DNA of 64,000 nt, taken from assembly GCA_037574385.1 (NCBI GenBank), contig GCA_037574385.1_4529.1. One strand, given 5' to 3'. Below the pieces are notes generated by a model. The model saw only the letters and a program-made list of their open reading frames with translations. It searched no databases and was not told the DNA's origin. The translations under genes and the position numbers were made by a program. Source of the stretch: a phage. Numbering within the stretch: position 1 is the stretch's first letter; each line of letters begins with the position of its first letter. This document shows, in pieces, positions 1 to 11,095 of this stretch.

Positions 1-33
1 GCTCATGCAATATATTGAATTTGCACGATCTTG

Positions 34-67
34 TAGGCCGGATAAGGCGTTCACGCCGCATCCGGCA
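34..67. repeat. REP-like palindromic unit (enterobacterial intergenic repeat)
   Basis: GC-rich imperfect palindrome gccggataaggcgttcacgccgcatccggc in host-like intergenic DNA. Confidence 0.5.
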
Positions 68-124
68 TGAATAAAGCGCACTTTGTCGACAAGTTAAATG
101 CCGGGTTTAATCCCGACATTATTT

Positions 125-1006
125 TTATCCAGCCACAAAACTCTCTTCAACACACTGAATAAAAGTGTGCATCGCCGGGCTAACCGCTTTTCCAGCATGG
201 TGTGCGCACATGGCCGTAATGGTCTGCGACTGTTCGCCAAAAGGCAATTCAATTAATTCTCCGCTCTCAAGCTCTTTTTCCACCGCAAAGCGGGGCAAGT
301 AACTGACACCGATATTCGCCGCGACACAACGTTTGATACTTTCAATGCTTAACAGCTCAATGGTGTTTTCCACCGTGATCCGCCGCTGACGCAGCGTGCT
401 CTCAAATATCTGCCGGAAGACACATTGCGGTTCGTTGATAATAAAGCTACAGGCGTTATGTCTTCCCGGCTCAGTAAAATCGACATCTGCAATTTGCGGT
501 GAAGCCACCAGCACCAGCGATTGTTCACCCAACTCTCGTCGGTTCAGGGCATCATCATTCCCTACGCGATAAAAGACGCCGACATCGGCCTCATCATTCA
601 GTAGCGCATCACGGATCACGTAACAGTTCAGCGACTGCAACGATAAACGCACTTTTGGTGCGCGTTGCCGAAAACGCTGCAACACCTGCGGCATTCGGTA
701 AGAGAGCAACGTTTCGCCCGAAACAACGCGTAGTTCCCCGTCCGGATCTGACTCCTTTTTGGCAGCCTCACGAAGCGTATCCATCACTCGGGTAAGTTCA
801 TAAATGTGCGGCAGCAACTTTTTTCCTTCGCGGGTAAGGCACATCCGTCGGCCAATTTTCTCAAATAACTGGACTGAAAACTCCTGCTCAAGCTGCTGAA
901 TATGAAAAGTCACCGTCGATTGTGTACAGCACAATTTTTGCGAAGCTCGCAAAAAGGAACCCTCTTCCACCACGGTTTTAAGCGTAATAAAACGGCGCAG
1001 ATCCAT
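125..1006 (-). CDS. yfiE: LysR-family transcriptional regulator (start taken at MDLRRFITL, internal to the ORF-track ORF)
   Basis: N-terminal HTH (LRRFITLKTVVEEGSFLRASQKLCCTQSTV) plus LysR substrate-binding-like C-terminus; divergent from eamB as in E. coli; ~50% GC. Confidence 0.75.
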   Translation of the reverse strand: MDLRRFITLKTVVEEGSFLRASQKLCCTQSTVTFHIQQLEQEFSVQLFEKIGRRMCLTREGKKLLPHIYELTRVMDTLREAAKKESDPDGELRVVSGETLLSYRMPQVLQRFRQRAPKVRLSLQSLNCYVIRDALLNDEADVGVFYRVGNDDALNRRELGEQSLVLVASPQIADVDFTEPGRHNACSFIINEPQCVFRQIFESTLRQRRITVENTIELLSIESIKRCVAANIGVSYLPRFAVEKELESGELIELPFGEQSQTITAMCAHHAGKAVSPAMHTFIQCVEESFVAG

Positions 1007-1108
1007 AACCCCAAACCTATCGAAAATATCGAATCTAGAATATAAAAACATTCATTTTTTTAAATGTTCCGTGTCGGGTACTGTCTACCAAAACAGAGGA
1101 GATAACAA

Positions 1109-1696
1109 GTGACACCGACCCTTTTAAGTGCTTTTTGGACTTACACCCTGATTACCGCTATGACGCCAGGACCGAACAATATTCTCGCCCTTAGCTCTGC
1201 TACGTCGCATGGATTTCGTCAAAGTACCCGCGTGCTGGCAGGGATGAGTCTGGGATTTTTGATTGTGATGTTACTGTGTGCGGGCATTTCATTTTCACTG
1301 GCAGTGATTGACCCGGCAGCGGTACACCTTTTGAGTTGGGCGGGGGCGGCATATATTGTCTGGCTGGCGTGGAAAATCGCCACCAGCCCAACAAAGGAAG
1401 ACGGACTTCAGGCAAAACCAATCAGCTTTTGGGCCAGCTTTGCTTTGCAGTTTGTGAACGTCAAAATCATTTTGTACGGTGTTACGGCACTGTCGACGTT
1501 TGTTCTGCCGCAAACACAGGCGCTAAGCTGGGTAGTTGGCGTCAGCGTTTTGCTGGCGATGATTGGGACGTTTGGCAATGTGTGCTGGGCGCTGGCGGGG
1601 CATCTGTTTCAGCGATTGTTTCGCCAGTATGGTCGCCAGTTAAATATCGTGCTTGCCCTGTTGCTGGTCTATTGCGCGGTACGCATTTTCTATTAA
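1109..1696 (+). CDS. eamB: LysE/RhtB-family cysteine/O-acetylserine exporter EamB (YfiK), GTG start
   Basis: 195 aa multi-TM protein; sequence recognised as E. coli EamB; RBS GAGGAGA upstream. Confidence 0.85.
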   Translation: MTPTLLSAFWTYTLITAMTPGPNNILALSSATSHGFRQSTRVLAGMSLGFLIVMLLCAGISFSLAVIDPAAVHLLSWAGAAYIVWLAWKIATSPTKEDGLQAKPISFWASFALQFVNVKIILYGVTALSTFVLPQTQALSWVVGVSVLLAMIGTFGNVCWALAGHLFQRLFRQYGRQLNIVLALLLVYCAVRIFY

Positions 1697-1704
1697 CGAA
1701 AAAA

Positions 1705-1730
1705 AGCGGAAGAGGTCGCCCTCTTCCGCT
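1705..1730. terminator. Bidirectional rho-independent terminator between convergent eamB and grcA
   Basis: Perfect hairpin agcggaagagg-tcgc-cctcttccgct flanked by A-run and T-rich sequence. Confidence 0.6.
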
Positions 1731-1751
1731 TAGTAACTTGCTACTTAAGCC

Positions 1752-2114
1752 TTACAGGCTTTCAGTAAAGGTACGAGCGATAACGTCGCGCTGCTGTTCC
1801 GGAGTCAGAGAGTTAAAGCGAACTGCATAACCGGATACACGGATGGTCAGCTGCGGATATTTTTCCGGATGCTTAACTGCATCTTCCAGAGTTTCGCGAC
1901 GCAGAACGTTAACGTTCAGGTGTTGACCACCTTCAATTTTAACTTTAGGTTGATGTTCAATTTCAATTTCACGGGCATTCAAACCGTAGAAAATTTCTGG
2001 GTCTACAATAGCGTCTTCTTTAAAAGCCTTAGAGACAATAATCCGGGCTTGAGTACCGTCTTCAAAATAAATAGTGCCTTTATGTGCACCTTCAAGAATT
2101 TGATATGCTTTCAT
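1752..2114 (-). CDS. grcA: Autonomous glycyl-radical cofactor GrcA/YfiD family; chimeric: C-terminal half host-type, N-terminal half phage-type (T4 Y06I-like)
   Basis: C-terminus [59 protein letters not shown] matches E. coli GrcA with glycyl-radical motif RVSGY; N-terminal 58 aa diverged and encoded by AT-rich DNA. Confidence 0.8.
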
Positions 2115-5175: not shown

Positions 5176-5660
5176 ATATACGCTTTCCAAGTTCCTGTTT
5201 TAAATGTTGAGATTACGCGTTTCGCACGATTAGGTGTCTGACGATACCATTTAGATTGGGCTAGATTTACTGCCGCTTCATCCCAACGTTTCTGTTGAAG
5301 CATACGAAGAGAATTAGTAAAACCAGCAACGCCTGCTACACCCATTTGGAAGACCATATTGACTAATGCACATCGACGAACCGCGTCTAAAGAATCATAC
5401 ACTGGTTTAAGTTTAGCATTACCCAAGATTCCACGAACGGCTTTATCAACATCTTCATTAAATAGCTTTTCAGCCTCATCAAGGGTAATTGTACCGTTGC
5501 ATTTACGACCGATCATTCTATCAAGTTCAGCTTTAGCTACGGCTAAAGACGGGTTCTTTGTTACCAAATGGCCTATGCCAATAGTCCAAAAGCCTTCGGT
5601 GTCTTTGTATAAAGACAGTCTAAGACCTTCGTCATTACGAAGCATTTCAAATATATTCAT
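5172..5660 (-). CDS. e: Phage lysozyme (endolysin, T4 gene e), start at MNIFEMLR
   Basis: Collinear high identity with T4 lysozyme as recalled ([27 protein letters not shown]...[31 protein letters not shown]). Confidence 0.95.
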
Positions 5661-5694
5661 AATACCTCCCACGTTTATAGGAGGTATTTATTAC

Positions 5695-6153
5695 TTATAG
5701 GATGGTAGTGAGCACCTTATATAATGATTTGCCCATCACATATTCCCATTGAGAAGGTTTAATTAAAGCGAATGCATCAAATTCAGGAATCTGTCGTCCG
5801 TCCGGGAATGTATGATAGGAATTACAAACACTGTTTCTGAATTGCTCGTGCTCTACAGGGATGGTATATTGGAATAGATGAATATTCTTATTGTCTGAGT
5901 AATGATGTTCACCTAGGTCTTTCAGGAAGGCAGGGTCATATTGTGTAAACCCAGTTTCTTCTTCGCATTCACGAATAGCGGCTTCAATAGGAGATTCGCC
6001 AGGTTCGACGCGGCCTTTAGGAATATCCCACCGATGAGCTAAAGAACCTTTAGGACGAGAACCAGTTACACGGCCCATGAATAATTCTTTATCTTCGGTA
6101 AGGAAAATAATACCGGCTGATAGTTCTTTCACTTTATTTTTCTTACTCATCAT
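5695..6153 (-). CDS. nudE: Nudix hydrolase (T4 NudE/e.1-like)
   Basis: Nudix box GRVEPGESPIEAAIRECEEETG; directly downstream of e as in T4. Confidence 0.85.
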   Translation of the reverse strand: MMSKKNKVKELSAGIIFLTEDKELFMGRVTGSRPKGSLAHRWDIPKGRVEPGESPIEAAIRECEEETGFTQYDPAFLKDLGEHHYSDNKNIHLFQYTIPVEHEQFRNSVCNSYHTFPDGRQIPEFDAFALIKPSQWEYVMGKSLYKVLTTIL

Positions 6154-6379
6154 CTCGGTCCCATGATTTGGCCATTAATTCGGACATAAATTCTTCAATG
6201 CGTGTTTCTTTAGATGGACTTTCACTATTAGAGACCGCAAGTTTGTAATCTGCAATAGGACGGAACAAATCAAGGTCCATATTAAGATCGTCTTTGATTT
6301 TTTCTTCTGACACATCTTTATCATATGTGTACAGATAACTATCACACGATTCTGATTTAATGTAAATTGCTATACTCAT
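6143..6379 (-). CDS. Hypothetical small acidic protein (start at second ATG, SD AGGAA)
   Basis: ORF with RBS; ATG overlaps upstream stop. Confidence 0.4.
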   Translation of the reverse strand: MSIAIYIKSESCDSYLYTYDKDVSEEKIKDDLNMDLDLFRPIADYKLAVSNSESPSKETRIEEFMSELMAKSWDRDDE

Positions 6380-6867
6380 CTCAAATTCCTGCATTCGGTA
6401 ATAAAACGTTCAACTTCATTATTCTTGGCCTTTATCTTGTCTTTACGTTCCTGTAAACTACTTTTAACAAGATTAATAATGATGCCTATAGTACCTCCAC
6501 CAATAATACCACCAATAATACTTACGATAGTAGATGCTAATAATATAGCGATAATATCTGGTATGGCAAAGGCACTTACTTTAGTACTAAAAAACCATAC
6601 CGACGGTACAAATATAATCCATCCTGTTATCCATTGGCACTTATTGAAAAACTTTTCAAGCTCAGCTTGAGTTGTTCGTATTACTTCATCGATAGGTTGA
6701 TATCCATTAATGTATCTGTTCACGATAATACCTGCTGGTTGGTCGATTTTAAATTCTTGACAAATACGTTTCACTAAGTAGGATGGACATCCTGTCCAAT
6801 CTACTGAATAGTACGAAATACCTTCATTACCGTCGTCTATATTAGACCAATATGTTTTGTTAATCAT
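6376..6867 (-). CDS. Hypothetical membrane protein (163 aa)
   Basis: Long hydrophobic, Gly/Ile-rich segment WITGWIIFVPSVWFF...IVSIIGGIIGGGTIGIIINLV. Confidence 0.5.
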   Translation of the reverse strand: MINKTYWSNIDDGNEGISYYSVDWTGCPSYLVKRICQEFKIDQPAGIIVNRYINGYQPIDEVIRTTQAELEKFFNKCQWITGWIIFVPSVWFFSTKVSAFAIPDIIAILLASTIVSIIGGIIGGGTIGIIINLVKSSLQERKDKIKAKNNEVERFITECRNLR

Positions 6868-7553
6868 TACCAGCCTTCCATAGGGAATTCCAGATAAACT
6901 TGAGCATTGACACGAATTTCATTGGTAATCTTTTTAACTCGGTCTGTATTACGAGATACACGTCCGAACCAACGCCATCCATTACTAATTGCACGAGAAC
7001 CAGTGTGCCATGTTTGCCAATCAAACTGAAGAAGAGTACGGTCTGGAGCTTCCCATTTCTCTAGTTCACCTTTTTCAATTTTTTCGAGGACTTCTTTGTG
7101 CCACTGGCGATAGATAAGTTCGCCATCAGGAATCTGACTGAACTCTGCAGTTCCTGTTGCAAAATGAGTAGGACACACGTCAGCGTTAACAAGGCCAAGA
7201 ATATGTTCAGACAAATAGCGAGGATTGTCATAATCAGGTTGTCCTGCAGTAATAAAATGTTGACCAACCGGAATATCCGGACGTGGTACATCGTCATGGT
7301 GATAACCTGGGATAGCAGGGTACCAACCAGGCATCAGCATGTGGACTCGTGAATCAAATACTACATCCGAGCCTTTCCAATCGTCAGGGAGATTTTGGAT
7401 AAAGCTACGAGTAATTGGACCGCCGTTATCCCAAGCAAAACTCAAATCACAGTTAAAGAACATTTGTTCATTTTTGATTTGGTCATTTTGTACGTTATGA
7501 GCAAAACCACCTACTGCACGAGCTTGACTATTAAACACTTTAGAACTATTCAT
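6867..7553 (-). CDS. Hypothetical protein (228 aa), no recognisable motif
   Basis: Long ORF in hyperplastic region; His/Asp-rich patches (HHDD, PTHFATG). Confidence 0.5.
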   Translation of the reverse strand: MNSSKVFNSQARAVGGFAHNVQNDQIKNEQMFFNCDLSFAWDNGGPITRSFIQNLPDDWKGSDVVFDSRVHMLMPGWYPAIPGYHHDDVPRPDIPVGQHFITAGQPDYDNPRYLSEHILGLVNADVCPTHFATGTAEFSQIPDGELIYRQWHKEVLEKIEKGELEKWEAPDRTLLQFDWQTWHTGSRAISNGWRWFGRVSRNTDRVKKITNEIRVNAQVYLEFPMEGW

Positions 7554-7554
7554 A

Positions 7555-7860
7555 TTATTTTCCTCGGCATTCTTTAATGAAATTTTCTAGATTGGTAGAT
7601 TCAATAGCTTTTTTACGAGCTTCTGCATGTTCTTCTTCAGACAATTTACATTTATAATTAACCCAGACGTTATGGTCAAAACTAGTCGTGGCATATAATA
7701 ACAAAGCCCCGACGAATAATAAAAATGGTGATAAGAATACAAAACCAGGAACACCATCCATATTGTAAGCCTTTTGTAATACTGCAACAGAAAGAGCTGC
7801 ATAAAAAGGCGATGCAAATATTGTAAAAAGACCAATTCGGTTGGTTTCGCCTAATTTCAT
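7555..7860 (-). CDS. Hypothetical small membrane protein (101 aa)
   Basis: Two predicted TM helices; RBS GAGGAGAAT; follows an early promoter. Confidence 0.5.
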   Translation of the reverse strand: MKLGETNRIGLFTIFASPFYAALSVAVLQKAYNMDGVPGFVFLSPFLLFVGALLLYATTSFDHNVWVNYKCKLSEEEHAEARKKAIESTNLENFIKECRGK

Positions 7861-7888
7861 AATATTCTCCTCATGTTTTAATAGGACT

Positions 7889-7918
7889 ACTATAACATAG
7901 TCCTATAATTGTGTAAAC
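7889..7918 (-). promoter_or_regulatory. T4-type early promoter embedded in a 9-bp inverted repeat (PeSL-like cassette)
   Basis: Minus strand GTTTAC-N18-TGTTATAGT; -10 lies within palindrome ATAGGACTA..TAGTCCTAT; near-identical copies at ~9184 and ~15870. Confidence 0.55.
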
Positions 7919-7930
7919 GGTTTTGTGAAA

Positions 7931-8887
7931 TTATTTGAAAGGTTTTACCATATGGAAATTTTGTTTGAAACGTTTGACGTAATCATCATGTCCTAAGCTT
8001 TGGTACATACTTACAACTTTGCTGTAGTTTTCCCAAGCATACTCACGGAACCAACCAGAGGTGATGCTTGTACAGACTTTTTCCAATGCCATCATAAAAC
8101 TGGCTTCAGGGTTAATTTTAAAGTCATTAGGAATCTGAGAACGTTCTAATGCTAGTACACATGATTCTTCGTATACACCGGCCAATTTGACCATTTCTGG
8201 TAATGATTCGAACTTCTCGCGTGAGGTCATGACTTCAGAACCATCTTTCATGTAAAATGTATAAGCCGGACGGTCTGTTAGTGCAATGGCTTCGTGAATA
8301 GTATCATGGTCATACGTATAGATGTCATCTTTAAAGAATGCGCTTTTAGAAGTGTCAAGAACTGGGTGAGCATAGTTCAAGGTTTCTTTCTGGCGTTTCA
8401 GCATAATTTCAGTAAGTTCATCGTTCAGTGTAACACCTTTACCACGAAGATACTGAATATGGTTCATAGTCTTTAAAAAGAATGGATTATTTTTCTTGAA
8501 ACGATGAGACATCTTAATTGCAAGACACATCTCAGGAGTTGCCCAGTAAAACCCGTTCAAACGGTCTTTAGTCAAATTTTTCTTGGCGTATTTTAAAAGG
8601 TCATAAGAAGACGTGAAATCTTCAGGAGTGAGTTCACCGACTAATTCACGGACATTAGTGATTGCCGGAACAATATACGCTTCAAAATGAGTTTCGCGTC
8701 CATTATGGAAGCATTTGAAAACTTGGACATCAGGGTTATCTTGGTGGACATATACACCCATCATTTGATTTTTGAATGTATTCCAAGAACCTTGGTCCGC
8801 AATAAAGTCCCAATCGCTATTTTTGATAGCGCTAGAATCAATAAGGCCATGATAGTGAAGTGCACGAGAACCAATAACTAACATCAT
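7931..8887 (-). CDS. Hypothetical protein (318 aa)
   Basis: Long ORF, no motif recognised. Confidence 0.5.
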   Translation of the reverse strand: MMLVIGSRALHYHGLIDSSAIKNSDWDFIADQGSWNTFKNQMMGVYVHQDNPDVQVFKCFHNGRETHFEAYIVPAITNVRELVGELTPEDFTSSYDLLKYAKKNLTKDRLNGFYWATPEMCLAIKMSHRFKKNNPFFLKTMNHIQYLRGKGVTLNDELTEIMLKRQKETLNYAHPVLDTSKSAFFKDDIYTYDHDTIHEAIALTDRPAYTFYMKDGSEVMTSREKFESLPEMVKLAGVYEESCVLALERSQIPNDFKINPEASFMMALEKVCTSITSGWFREYAWENYSKVVSMYQSLGHDDYVKRFKQNFHMVKPFK

Positions 8888-8915
8888 AATATTTTCCTCT
8901 GATTAATTCATTAAC

Positions 8916-9167
8916 TTAAATTTCACGACATGCGATATCATATTCATCCCAGAGGTCATCATGTGAAGCCTCTACCAATGGAACGATTGTACCGTTTATG
9001 TCTTCATTATAAGGACAAATTGTACAGTGCGCATCTTCGAATCGGATGCCTTTGTGTTCAGATTTTTTATAACGTATATCGAATATCTTTGCAAACTTTT
9101 CACGACTAATAGTTTTAGCAACTACTTCGGTTCCGATACTTTCGTAATAAATCATTGTGGACTCCAT
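8916..9167 (-). CDS. Hypothetical small protein (83 aa)
   Basis: ORF directly downstream of an early promoter. Confidence 0.45.
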   Translation of the reverse strand: MESTMIYYESIGTEVVAKTISREKFAKIFDIRYKKSEHKGIRFEDAHCTICPYNEDINGTIVPLVEASHDDLWDEYDIACREI

Positions 9168-9183
9168 TTAATTTGATAGGACT

Positions 9184-9213
9184 ACTATAACATAGCCCTA
9201 TCTTGTTGTAAAC
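9184..9213 (-). promoter_or_regulatory. T4-type early promoter within palindromic cassette
   Basis: GTTTAC-N18-TATAGT on minus strand; palindrome gataggactactataacatagccctatc. Confidence 0.55.
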
Positions 9214-9217
9214 TGTT

Positions 9218-9415
9218 TTAGCAAGAATAACTAGATGATACCCAGCCTTGAACAGTAATACTATTATTGGATAATGAGATCGCGTCCTGGAGATTCAGAC
9301 CTGCGTTATCTTCAATCCACAATGTAACTTCTTCGCGTTCTTCTGTTGCAATTTGGAACAGGTTTTCCAGAGCAGCTACTGCCGTACGTACAGCACAATC
9401 TAATTCACGAGACAT
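9218..9415 (-). CDS. Small protein, member 1 of a tandem paralog triplet (65 aa)
   Basis: C-terminus ...TVQGWVSSSYSC shared with the next two ORFs. Confidence 0.5.
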   Translation of the reverse strand: MSRELDCAVRTAVAALENLFQIATEEREEVTLWIEDNAGLNLQDAISLSNNSITVQGWVSSSYSC

Positions 9416-9424
9416 ATGATTTCC

Positions 9425-9697
9425 TTAACAAGTGTGAGAAGATGCAACCCAACCACCATCTTCAAGGCTCAGGTTGTAGTCGTATTGGTAAACGTCAGCC
9501 CATTCAGCCTGGCCGTTTTTTGTACAACGTTCAAGATCGGCTTTAAGATGTCCTGGTGAATGATAGGTTCCACCCATGCCATAAGCTGGATACAAGTCGA
9601 ATGTTGTGTTTTGTTTATTAGCAATTTCTTTGGCAGCCTCAATAGCTGCATAGATTTTTGCTACGGCTTCAGCCAGTTCGGTTTGTTCTTTAGACAT
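9425..9697 (-). CDS. Small protein, member 2 of tandem paralog triplet (90 aa)
   Basis: C-terminus ...DGGWVASSHTC; N-terminus MSKEQTELAEA. Confidence 0.5.
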   Translation of the reverse strand: MSKEQTELAEAVAKIYAAIEAAKEIANKQNTTFDLYPAYGMGGTYHSPGHLKADLERCTKNGQAEWADVYQYDYNLSLEDGGWVASSHTC

Positions 9698-9706
9698 AAT
9701 GATTCC

Positions 9707-10012
9707 TTAGCACAACGCAGAAGACGAAACCCAAGCACCTTCAGTAATAACGTAACCATTACCTTCACGCTTAACGTCGCCACCATTATTTTCAATTTCA
9801 TCTTTCATCCACTGGGATACGATTTCACCCTTAGGATAATAAGTACGACCGCTACCATAATCACCTACAGAAAATGATACGGCGTATTGGTCTGCGATCT
9901 TTGTTGCTTCTTCTTCGATACGTTCAGCTTGATTCAGAAGTTTATAAATTGCATCTGAAGCGGATTTGGCATCATTAAACTCTGGTACTTTAATTTCAAT
10001 AATCTTACTCAT
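9707..10012 (-). CDS. Small protein, member 3 of tandem paralog triplet (101 aa)
   Basis: C-terminus ...EGAWVSSSALC; N-terminus MSKIIEIKVPE. Confidence 0.5.
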   Translation of the reverse strand: MSKIIEIKVPEFNDAKSASDAIYKLLNQAERIEEEATKIADQYAVSFSVGDYGSGRTYYPKGEIVSQWMKDEIENNGGDVKREGNGYVITEGAWVSSSALC

Positions 10013-10071: not shown

Positions 10072-10101
10072 ATTATAACTAATCATTTGAGAAGCGTAAA
10101 C
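10072..10101 (-). promoter_or_regulatory. T4-type early promoter (GTTTAC-N18-TATAAT) upstream of the paralog triplet
   Basis: Consensus -35 GTTTAC and perfect -10 TATAAT on minus strand in the 10013-10110 gap. Confidence 0.55.
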
Positions 10102-10110
10102 AGCATAAAT

Positions 10111-10503
10111 TCAGTTCAGGCTTTTGCATCTTATTTCCTTAACGAATTCCATAGCTTCTTCATATTCATACTTTTTAACAGCTTCATCATACTGAGCTTG
10201 GGCTTTTGCGCACTGAACTTTCCATTCTCTTAATCGGGCTCTGTGATGACGGCCTTGGTGCCAATATCCTACCCAATTAATAGGCATTAATAAAAACGGT
10301 ACAATAAGTGGTGCGACGAACATTAATGAAAACGCTGCATCAGACGATATAACTTTATTGGAATCTAAAATAGCTCCTATAATCATAAAGATTAAAAATG
10401 CTAAAGCTAAAATAGGACCAAATAGTACTTCATTTGGGATTAATTTACGCTTGTATTCATACGCCCAGGGCTTACTTGGCATGTATAGGGTTGGCTTTGA
10501 CAT
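10111..10503 (-). CDS. Hypothetical membrane protein (start uncertain; ORF-track ORF extends to 10533)
   Basis: Two hydrophobic helices (ILALAFLIFMIIGAIL, FSLMFVAPLIVPFLLMPI). Confidence 0.45.
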   Translation of the reverse strand: MSKPTLYMPSKPWAYEYKRKLIPNEVLFGPILALAFLIFMIIGAILDSNKVISSDAAFSLMFVAPLIVPFLLMPINWVGYWHQGRHHRARLREWKVQCAKAQAQYDEAVKKYEYEEAMEFVKEIRCKSLN

Positions 10504-11095
10504 ATTCTCTACATTCCATAATAAATTGCTCAAGGATTAAATTGTTAGTGAAATTAGGACTAACAACCATGGTTTCATAAAGAGCATCAATAGCACTTAA
10601 AGCATCAACTCTTTTAAGCAAAGGCTTGCCTTCATACATAGTTTCAGAATCGACGATTAACGTAAAGTAATATTTTTTGTTATCGACTAGAACTTCAGTA
10701 TCGATATAAAACATGTTAGACCTTAAGAGCTTATCTCTAAAACCATAATAATCTTCAGAGCGTTCGCTGATATATTCCCATTCGGTGTTTAAACAACAAA
10801 CAGACCACGTAGGAGCAACGAAATCAGTGAATCTAATATCATGGTCTGCAACTAGTTTAGCAATAGCTCCGATATCATGAATCATAATACCTGGGGCTAA
10901 TAAAGATTTTCTGCTATGGCTAGCCGTTTTCTCAGTTGTCTCATAAGAAGACGACCAGTACCATTTACGTCCAGTTGCAACATATCGTAATGAATCAACT
11001 AAAGACGTAGGTGGATTTACCTTATCTCGGAACTCTTCGAACATTGAGTCAATATCATTATTTTGGTTTCGCATGTTAACTCCTTTATTATCCAA
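10472..11095 (-). CDS. Hypothetical protein (207 aa)
   Basis: ORF with RBS AAGGAG; preceded by terminator hairpin. Confidence 0.5.
   Translation of the reverse strand: MDNKGVNMRNQNNDIDSMFEEFRDKVNPPTSLVDSLRYVATGRKWYWSSSYETTEKTASHSRKSLLAPGIMIHDIGAIAKLVADHDIRFTDFVAPTWSVCCLNTEWEYISERSEDYYGFRDKLLRSNMFYIDTEVLVDNKKYYFTLIVDSETMYEGKPLLKRVDALSAIDALYETMVVSPNFTNNLILEQFIMECREYVKANPIHAK

Follow-up and report, generated by a model that had tools for sequence, protein, structure and literature searches.

A predicted nucleotidyltransferase beside small tail-motif proteins and an unrelated predicted Fe(II)/2-oxoglutarate dioxygenase in an RB69-like phage

Nucleotidyltransferases that modify a small partner protein are known from the GlnD/PII and CitX/CitD pairs. 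In another such pair MntA, a minimal nucleotidyltransferase with a GSX10DXD motif, polyadenylylates Tyr104 of the protein encoded beside it, HepT (PMC7641770). Other nucleotidyltransferases have different partners or none: the MenT1, MenT3 and MenT4 toxins of Mycobacterium tuberculosis and AbiEii (DUF1814) are accompanied by MenA and AbiEi antitoxins, and ANT(2'')-Ia and LnuA act on small-molecule antibiotics. Among phage proteins, the anti-Gabija protein Gad2 of SPbeta-like phages combines a predicted nucleotidyltransferase domain with a demonstrated anti-defence role. Here we describe two genes in a 64,000-nucleotide (nt) stretch of phage DNA (contig GCA_037574385.1_4529.1, hereafter the window), an RB69-like Mosigvirus that over positions 5600–9300 is 97.4% identical to phiC120 and 96.2% identical to RB69. 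The genes encode proteins of 318 and 228 amino acids (aa), which correspond to RB69ORF134c and RB69ORF132c. The reading we consider most probable, with fair but not high confidence, is that they are two unrelated accessory enzymes: a nucleotidyltransferase of the DNA polymerase beta (Pol-beta) superfamily with small tail-motif proteins as its cognate partners, and an Fe(II)/2-oxoglutarate (2OG) dioxygenase that acts alone.

An earlier sequence-only reading of the window had given the coordinates and lengths of both open reading frames (ORFs) exactly and had treated them as one feature, two proteins with no recognisable motifs. They are real genes: the 318-aa protein has 2212 homologous clusters at 90% identity (phrog_2141) and the 228-aa protein 1162 (phrog_1843), the latter with 740 representatives at 50% identity. 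Homology to a T4 core protein had been named as the outcome that would speak against new functions, and neither BLAST nor profile searches of the whole T4 genome returned a homologue of either protein. The suggestion that both might be enzymes agrees with their structure models, which at the fold level fall in known enzyme superfamilies. The anti-defence role that it named as an alternative is purely speculative. The description as motif-less orphans did not survive. Besides these fold-level matches, the 318-aa protein matches DUF7277 and DUF7275 and has a GS...DxD signature, the 228-aa protein has an HxD...H...R dioxygenase signature, and labels already exist for homologues in a few GenBank records: 'nucleotidyltransferase' for the first protein, '2OG-Fe(II) oxygenase' or 'phytanoyl-CoA dioxygenase' for the second.

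The 318-aa protein is predicted from its motifs and structure model to be a two-domain nucleotidyltransferase of the Pol-beta superfamily. Pfam assigns residues 2–101 to DUF7277 (2.9e-27) and residues 120–305 to DUF7275 (5.2e-79). The N-terminal domain (residues ~1–110) has the form of a minimal Pol-beta nucleotidyltransferase, with conserved G6-S7, D25-x-D27 and E69, and shows the features of the superfamily: an alpha/beta fold, hG[GS], [DE]h[DE]h on strand 2 and h[DE]h on strand 3. The structures closest to the model are those of MenT toxins, followed by ANT(2'') and LnuA, which score almost as well. When 42 members of the family were compared with Pfam at E ≤ 1, DUF7277 and DUF7275 were the only matches, and no curated nucleotidyltransferase family (NTP_transf_2, AbiEii, RlaP and others) was found. 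Scans of NCBIfam and PADLOC gave no match for this protein or for the 228-aa protein, and searches of PDB chains with single sequences, full-length profiles and domain-specific profiles returned nothing credible for either. T4 NrdC.11, which is annotated as 'nucleotidyltransferase', was rejected as a distant homologue (hhalign probability 0.08%).

An invariant lysine of the 318-aa protein, K125, lies 100 residues past D25 and may correspond, as judged from sequence spacing only, to the motif III lysine of the MenT proteins (K137 in MenT1, K189 in MenT3 and K171 in MenT4), for which the spacing is 96–109 residues. The DUF1814-specific motif IV Asp, located 15–22 residues after the motif III Lys, is not evident, as an invariant threonine (T140) occupies position +15 and no invariant acidic residue occurs between residues 126 and 167. 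With neither a Pfam AbiEii match nor this Asp, the protein is therefore no member of the DUF1814/MenT group. The C-terminal domain (~117–318, DUF7275) is all-helical and contains 45 invariant positions, including 'KMSHR', 'YDHDSIHE', 'CVLALERSQIP' and 'KVCTSITSGWFREYAWENY'. Fold and profile searches with this domain detected no known relative, and a search of viral folds in BFVD returned only uncharacterised DUF7275 members. The protein also has a second set of invariant polar residues, composed of H128, H174, H194, D195, H198, E240/241 and R249.

Homologues of the 318-aa protein are present in 734 phage records, which include T4-like phages of many genera, Acinetobacter and Pseudomonas phages, ~150-kb phages and jumbo phages. 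Among ~185,000 bacterial species genomes DUF7275 occurs at only five loci, all in metagenome bins, which provide no informative cellular context; the family is therefore essentially virus-restricted. DUF7275 proteins of 508–571 aa are also found in giant-virus metagenome bins (BFVD entries A0A3G5AJ90, Sylvanvirus, and A0A3G5AE53, Satyrvirus), where either the family reaches viruses of eukaryotes or the bins contain phage contamination.

The nucleotidyltransferase gene is linked to a set of small ORFs. Two scans of viral contigs yielded 160 loci, 80 anchored on the dioxygenase gene and 80 on the nucleotidyltransferase gene, and clustering of all their ORFs identified a family of small proteins that adjoins the latter. 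These proteins are acidic (18% D/E, 8% K/R), have a median length of 92 aa and end in G-[G/A]-W-h-S-S-S-x-x-C followed directly by the stop codon. With the pattern [WYF]x[ASTP]SSxxC-stop, in which the tryptophan is not forced, at least one such ORF was found in 73 of the 80 nucleotidyltransferase-anchored loci, at one to four copies per locus, as against 1 of 64 control loci that have the dioxygenase gene and no nucleotidyltransferase gene. Of the seven motif-negative loci, five carry variant tails (W-x(1-3)-S-S-x(0-2)-C), which brings the total to 78 of 80, and another has no upstream sequence to assess; one neighbour family (fam17) is a further tail variant. The arrangement is also regular, with 138 of 142 tail-motif ORFs on the same strand as the nucleotidyltransferase gene and 137 upstream of it, at a median gap of 901 nt.

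Across 126 unique tails the W, S, S and C residues are kept without exception; the variable positions are -6, -2 and -1. Position -9 is Gly in 76 of these tails and position -8 is Gly or Ala in 59. The bodies of the proteins carry motifs of their own, 'GDYGxGxTYYP' and 'YGMGG'. The family comprises 590 clusters, all unnamed (phrog_899 and phrog_4882), and has no Pfam match. In the window there are exactly three tail-motif ORFs, which form a tandem array upstream of the 318-aa gene at 9218–10012 and thus lie outside the interval singled out by the sequence-only reading. A search of the whole T4 genome found neither a homologue of the 318-aa enzyme nor the tail motif. The third gene of the array is unbroken in the window and likewise, at ≥99% identity, in no fewer than 127 phage records; in the RB69 reference (10107–10413) a 1-nt insertion splits it into ORF139c/138c and the tail has a Ser-to-Pro change (WVSSPALC), so that in the reference strain either the gene is a pseudogene or the sequence contains an error. 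In the literature searched we found no description of a nucleotidyltransferase/tail-protein module and no mention of the two flagged proteins or of the small tail families.

Under our preferred reading, the N-terminal domain would use G6-S7, D25-x-D27 and E69 to bind a nucleoside triphosphate and Mg2+ and would transfer the nucleoside monophosphate (NMP) to a hydroxyl group, while the helical DUF7275 domain would supply nucleotide and acceptor binding. The small acidic proteins would be its cognate partners, either as substrates or as docking partners. We propose that the W-x-SSS-x-x-C tail docks on the DUF7275 domain because the tail is invariant on otherwise divergent paralogues and the domain is itself invariant. 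One tail serine would then be nucleotidylylated; serine is proposed because such enzymes transfer NMP to hydroxyls and because MntA does so on HepT. The MntA/HepT pair is the closest functional analogy to this proposal: the enzyme is a minimal Pol-beta nucleotidyltransferase with a GS-Xn-DxD motif, its gene adjoins that of a small partner, and the partner receives the nucleotidyl group covalently on a side-chain hydroxyl (PMC7641770). It differs in that no homology to the 318-aa protein is detectable beyond the superfamily motif, the acceptor in HepT is the Tyr of an RX4HXY motif whereas the one proposed here is a serine of the C-terminal tail, and the partners described here have no HEPN domain.

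The remaining systems are more distant. Compared with the MenT proteins and AbiEii, the 318-aa protein has no sequence-level membership of their family, no evident motif IV Asp, an extra, highly conserved helical region of ~170 residues, a virus-restricted distribution and, in place of MenA or AbiEi antitoxins, one to four acidic partners with W-x-SSS-x-x-C tails. ANT(2'')-Ia and LnuA are much shorter (158–175 aa), come from bacterial resistance contexts rather than from phages and have no conserved partner proteins. Gad2, which we compare by description only, has 400 aa and comes from Bacillus phages.

Several observations weigh against the reading we favour. The GS-to-DxD spacer is 17 residues in the 318-aa protein and 12–20 across its family, as against a canonical 9–13; the nearest structures belong to enzymes that act on tRNA or antibiotics, not on proteins; and gene linkage cannot separate a substrate from an inhibitor or an adaptor. 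In addition, a divergent DUF7275 subclade in Streptomyces, Gordonia and Vibrio phages has no tail-motif ORFs and has a different small gene downstream. From the fold, the motifs and the gene context we infer an enzymatic activity, a role for the small proteins as substrates rather than regulators, the residue modified and the biological role.

Members of the divergent subclade, from the loci of Streptomyces phage Blueeyedbeauty (gp205/206), Gordonia phage Toniann (gp16/17) and Vibrio phage K406, are shorter (251–263 aa) and keep GS...DxD and 'DHDSIH'. Their downstream gene is translationally coupled, encodes ~100–120 aa with a conserved C-terminal motif (...EVKPVxK...Y) and may represent an alternative partner class. 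In nine loci from jumbo and ~150-kb phages a lambda-type Ser/Thr metallophosphatase of ~250 aa ('GDxHG...GDxxDRG...GNHE') is encoded within a few genes on the downstream side of the nucleotidyltransferase; either this position is coincidental or the enzyme could remove a phosphate or nucleotidyl group from a modified serine.

Three other accounts of the nucleotidyltransferase locus have to be weighed. The 318-aa protein might be a tRNA 3'-end nucleotidyltransferase of the MenT/AbiEii type that shuts off selected host tRNAs or repairs damaged CCA ends, with the small proteins as antitoxin-like inhibitors comparable to the 68-aa MenA1 that accompanies MenT1. The structural ranking of the model points in this direction, yet ANT(2'') and LnuA, which are small-molecule enzymes, score nearly as high, and the missing AbiEii/DUF1814 match throughout the family, the lack of an invariant acidic residue between 126 and 167, with T140 at +15, and a large conserved DUF7275 domain that has no MenT counterpart all argue against it. 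One to four divergent paralogues with a single invariant tail would be unusual for antitoxins, and a general tRNA-blocking toxin would hurt phage translation too. We regard this account as rather doubtful. We give about the same tentative standing to a version of the modification idea in which a virus-restricted system modifies the shared tail of one to four small acidic effectors either by Ser nucleotidylylation or onward to a dehydrated, cyclised warhead of the lanthionine or aminovinyl-cysteine (AviCys) type.

A pathway resembling those of ribosomally synthesised and post-translationally modified peptides (RiPPs) would take that second route alone. The acidic body would be a leader, joined at a Gly-Gly or Gly-Ala junction to an eight-residue core, W-x-S-S-S-x-x-C, and the enzyme would nucleotidylylate a serine that is then converted to dehydroalanine and attacked by the cysteine, giving a lanthionine- or AviCys-like ring. 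Such rings have a Ser-x-x-Cys spacing, which the tail, with Ser at -3 and a C-terminal Cys, would fit. The tandem precursor-like genes directly upstream of a modifying enzyme, the restriction of invariance to a C-terminal core with hypervariable x positions, and the residues at -9 and -8 are likewise what this account would predict, and another active site could be built from the additional invariant polar residues. However, no known RiPP enzyme class, leader peptidase or exporter was found in the neighbourhoods, which differ between lineages, the proteins have conserved, folded-looking bodies with their own motifs, unlike typical leaders, and the account rests wholly on context. We also know of no precedent for serine activation by a Pol-beta nucleotidyltransferase, and consider this pathway unlikely.

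The 228-aa protein is predicted, from its model and from conserved residues, to be an Fe(II)/2OG dioxygenase whose structure resembles the PhyH type, its sequence being too divergent for membership of Pfam PhyH. The model has a double-stranded beta-helix (jelly-roll) fold. The HxD...H triad (H85, D87 and H183) is invariant across 46 divergent sequences, with H183 on a predicted strand (182–185). R194, also invariant, lies 11 residues past H183 at the start of strand 192–201, a position that fits the basic residue that binds the 2OG C5 carboxylate (~10 residues after the distal His). The sequence-only reading had proposed a metal site in a His/Asp-rich patch; this patch, 'GYHHDDVPRP' (residues 83–92), contains H85-x-D87 and is therefore part of the invariant 2-His-1-carboxylate triad. 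The predicted ligands of Fe(II) are H85, D87 and H183, and the predicted ligand of the 2OG C5 carboxylate is R194; acting alone, the enzyme would oxidise and most likely hydroxylate some substrate early in infection.

Phage records with homologues number 473, among them those of Mycobacterium and Gordonia phages at ~30% identity. The 228-aa protein itself has no match in Pfam, neither to PhyH nor to the 2OG-FeII_Oxy families, and when 46 family members were searched against Pfam at E ≤ 1 no enzyme family emerged, PhyH (PF05721) being touched by only one of them (E=0.068). Identity to PhyH, EctD, EasH and proline hydroxylases is only 7–15%; compared with PhyH-type enzymes (~250–300 aa) the protein is shorter and has a conserved 40-residue loop (74–115), which is partly of low confidence in the model. 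The dioxygenase is 82% identical between E. coli and Aeromonas phages, as against 45% for the nucleotidyltransferase. Further homologues at 73–78% identity occur on ~108–113-kb contigs in Klebsiella assemblies, a size that would fit phage-plasmids or contaminating phage genomes.

A role on nucleic acid, in repair of alkylated DNA or RNA as for AlkB or in DNA hypermodification as for TET/JBP, appears improbable for the 228-aa protein. In the fold comparison enzymes of these types were outscored by PhyH-type small-molecule and amino-acid hydroxylases. The family spans phages with very different DNA chemistries, and its loci contain no conserved neighbour gene, nucleic-acid-related or otherwise, only generic genes (read by eye as NadV, dNMP kinase, ligase and Dda). 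A link to the arabinosyl-5-hydroxycytosine DNA modification of RB69 was rejected, and a role for the 228-aa protein in making the 5-hydroxycytosine of RB69 is unlikely, because this base is made by a flavin-dependent ThyA homologue, gp48, encoded elsewhere, in a modification cluster between gene 43 and rIIA (PMC13326640).

The adjacency of the two genes is local synteny and not an obligate pairing, and the treatment of the two ORFs as a single feature is not borne out. The partner gene was found within 10 kb in only 16 of 80 dioxygenase-anchored and 24 of 80 nucleotidyltransferase-anchored loci, all of them from T4-like phages of enterobacteria or Aeromonas; functional pairing was rejected largely on this distribution. 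In the 24 loci the genes are co-oriented, with the 228-aa gene 17–1986 nt downstream of the 318-aa gene, and in Serratia phage 4S they have consecutive locus tags, which speaks for a two-enzyme pathway in which, for example, the dioxygenase could tailor the substrate of the nucleotidyltransferase. Against such a pathway, which we hold to be very unlikely, Aeromonas phages of the 44RR/31/25 type have the two genes >100 kb apart, a promoter match of its own separates the 228-aa gene from the 318-aa gene, the two proteins differ strongly in evolutionary rate, and dioxygenase-only loci do not have the tail-motif ORFs.

In the window the interval from nudE (end 6153) to tRNA-Arg (start 14240) is 8.1 kb. 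The sequence-only reading was right that it is larger than in T4 (3.7 kb); its estimate of ~6.7 kb was too low. About 3.1 kb of the extra length is a single block (6867–10012) inserted between e.2 and e.3 (Table 1), and the gene families of the block have no match in the whole T4 genome by BLAST or profile search, which recovered the positive controls nudE and e.2. The RB69 annotation likewise gives no T4 counterpart for ORF132c, 133c and 134c. Of the small membrane protein and early promoter that the earlier reading placed between the two enzymes, the promoter is represented by a consensus match and the protein by the 101-aa ORF133c, which has hydrophobic segments at residues ~9–29 and 39–61. 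ORF133c is a lineage-restricted filler gene between the enzymes, detected by tblastn at a single one of the 80 nucleotidyltransferase-anchored loci. The 83-aa ORF135c occurs in 22 of the 160 loci and is also lineage-restricted, not a universal member of the module.

Table 1. Predicted genes and promoter matches in and next to the e.2–e.3 block
Feature	Coordinates	Strand	Remarks
Predicted Fe(II)/2OG-dependent dioxygenase, 228 aa, RB69ORF132c, phrog_1843	6867..7553	-	ATG ORF; proposed catalytic residues H85, D87, H183, R194
Small membrane protein, 101 aa, RB69ORF133c, phrog_9798	7555..7860	-	Two hydrophobic segments
Promoter match, sigma-70/T4-early-type, TTTACA-17 nt-TGnTATAGT	7917..7889	-	Consensus match; upstream of the 101-aa and 228-aa genes, in the 70-nt gap 7861–7930
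Predicted nucleotidyltransferase, two-domain, 318 aa, RB69ORF134c, phrog_2141	7931..8887	-	ATG ORF; Pfam DUF7277 and DUF7275
83-aa ORF, RB69ORF135c, phrog_3723	8916..9167	-	Separates the tail-motif array from the 318-aa gene
Promoter match, early-type, TTTACA-17 nt-TG-n-TATAGT	9184..9212	-	Consensus match; upstream of ORF135c and the 318-aa gene
Small acidic tail-motif protein, 65 aa, RB69ORF136c, phrog_4882	9218..9415	-	C-terminus ...QGWVSSSYSC-stop
Small acidic tail-motif protein, 90 aa, RB69ORF137c, phrog_899	9425..9697	-	'YGMGGTY'; C-terminus ...GGWVASSHTC-stop
Small acidic tail-motif protein, 101 aa, phrog_899	9707..10012	-	'GDYGSGRTYYP'; C-terminus ...GAWVSSSALC-stop
Promoter match, early-type, TTTACG-17 nt-TATAAT	10072..10100	-	Consensus match; upstream of the three small tail-motif genes

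Several small proteins of the region share a motif of the type F-[IV]-x-E-[CI]-R at or near the C-terminus ('RFITECRNLR', 'NFIKECRGK', 'EFVKEIRCKSLN' and 'QFIMECREY'). It occurs in e.2 (6376–6867), in ORF133c (7555–7860), whose 'NFIKECR' is common to e.2, in a 140-aa ORF (10111–10533), these three being predicted membrane proteins, and in a 207-aa ORF (10472–11095); weak matches are present at two places in the corresponding region of T4. The left edge of the window (1–1936) is GC-rich (48–51% GC as against ~36–40% elsewhere in the window) and is 100% identical to the E. coli chromosome, covering yfiE (LysR regulator), eamB (exporter) and the 3' part of grcA. Mosigvirus sequence (vs.6 and beyond) extends from 1745 onward, and the switch from host to phage falls in ~190 bp of near-identity between host grcA and phage vs.6 (junction zone 1745–1936). 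The junction was absent from every phage record and every complete E. coli genome searched, and is either a genuine host–phage recombinant or an assembly chimera.

Both families have had no assigned function although they are large (473 sequenced phage records for the dioxygenase, 734 for the nucleotidyltransferase, and metagenomic clusters in the thousands), and the assignment of enzyme classes with named catalytic residues makes both proteins directly testable. The conservation of the dioxygenase, far above that of its neighbours, suggests a tightly constrained substrate or target and merits a substrate screen. The more valuable result is the module, in which small acidic proteins with an invariant tail are nearly always encoded ahead of a nucleotidyltransferase whose extra domain is extremely conserved; its range extends from T4-like phages of E. 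coli to phages of Pseudomonas and Acinetobacter and to jumbo phages. Should the tail serve as a tag for modification or docking, the module would be a widespread and unexplored means by which phages control sets of early effector proteins, and the short tag together with the enzyme would give a handle for finding the host targets of these effectors. If the protein-modification reading is true, the enzyme would activate or regulate one to four different effectors per phage, and phages would have a new class of post-translational modification of their own, or else a nucleotidyltransferase would for the first time be the basis of a RiPP-like pathway.

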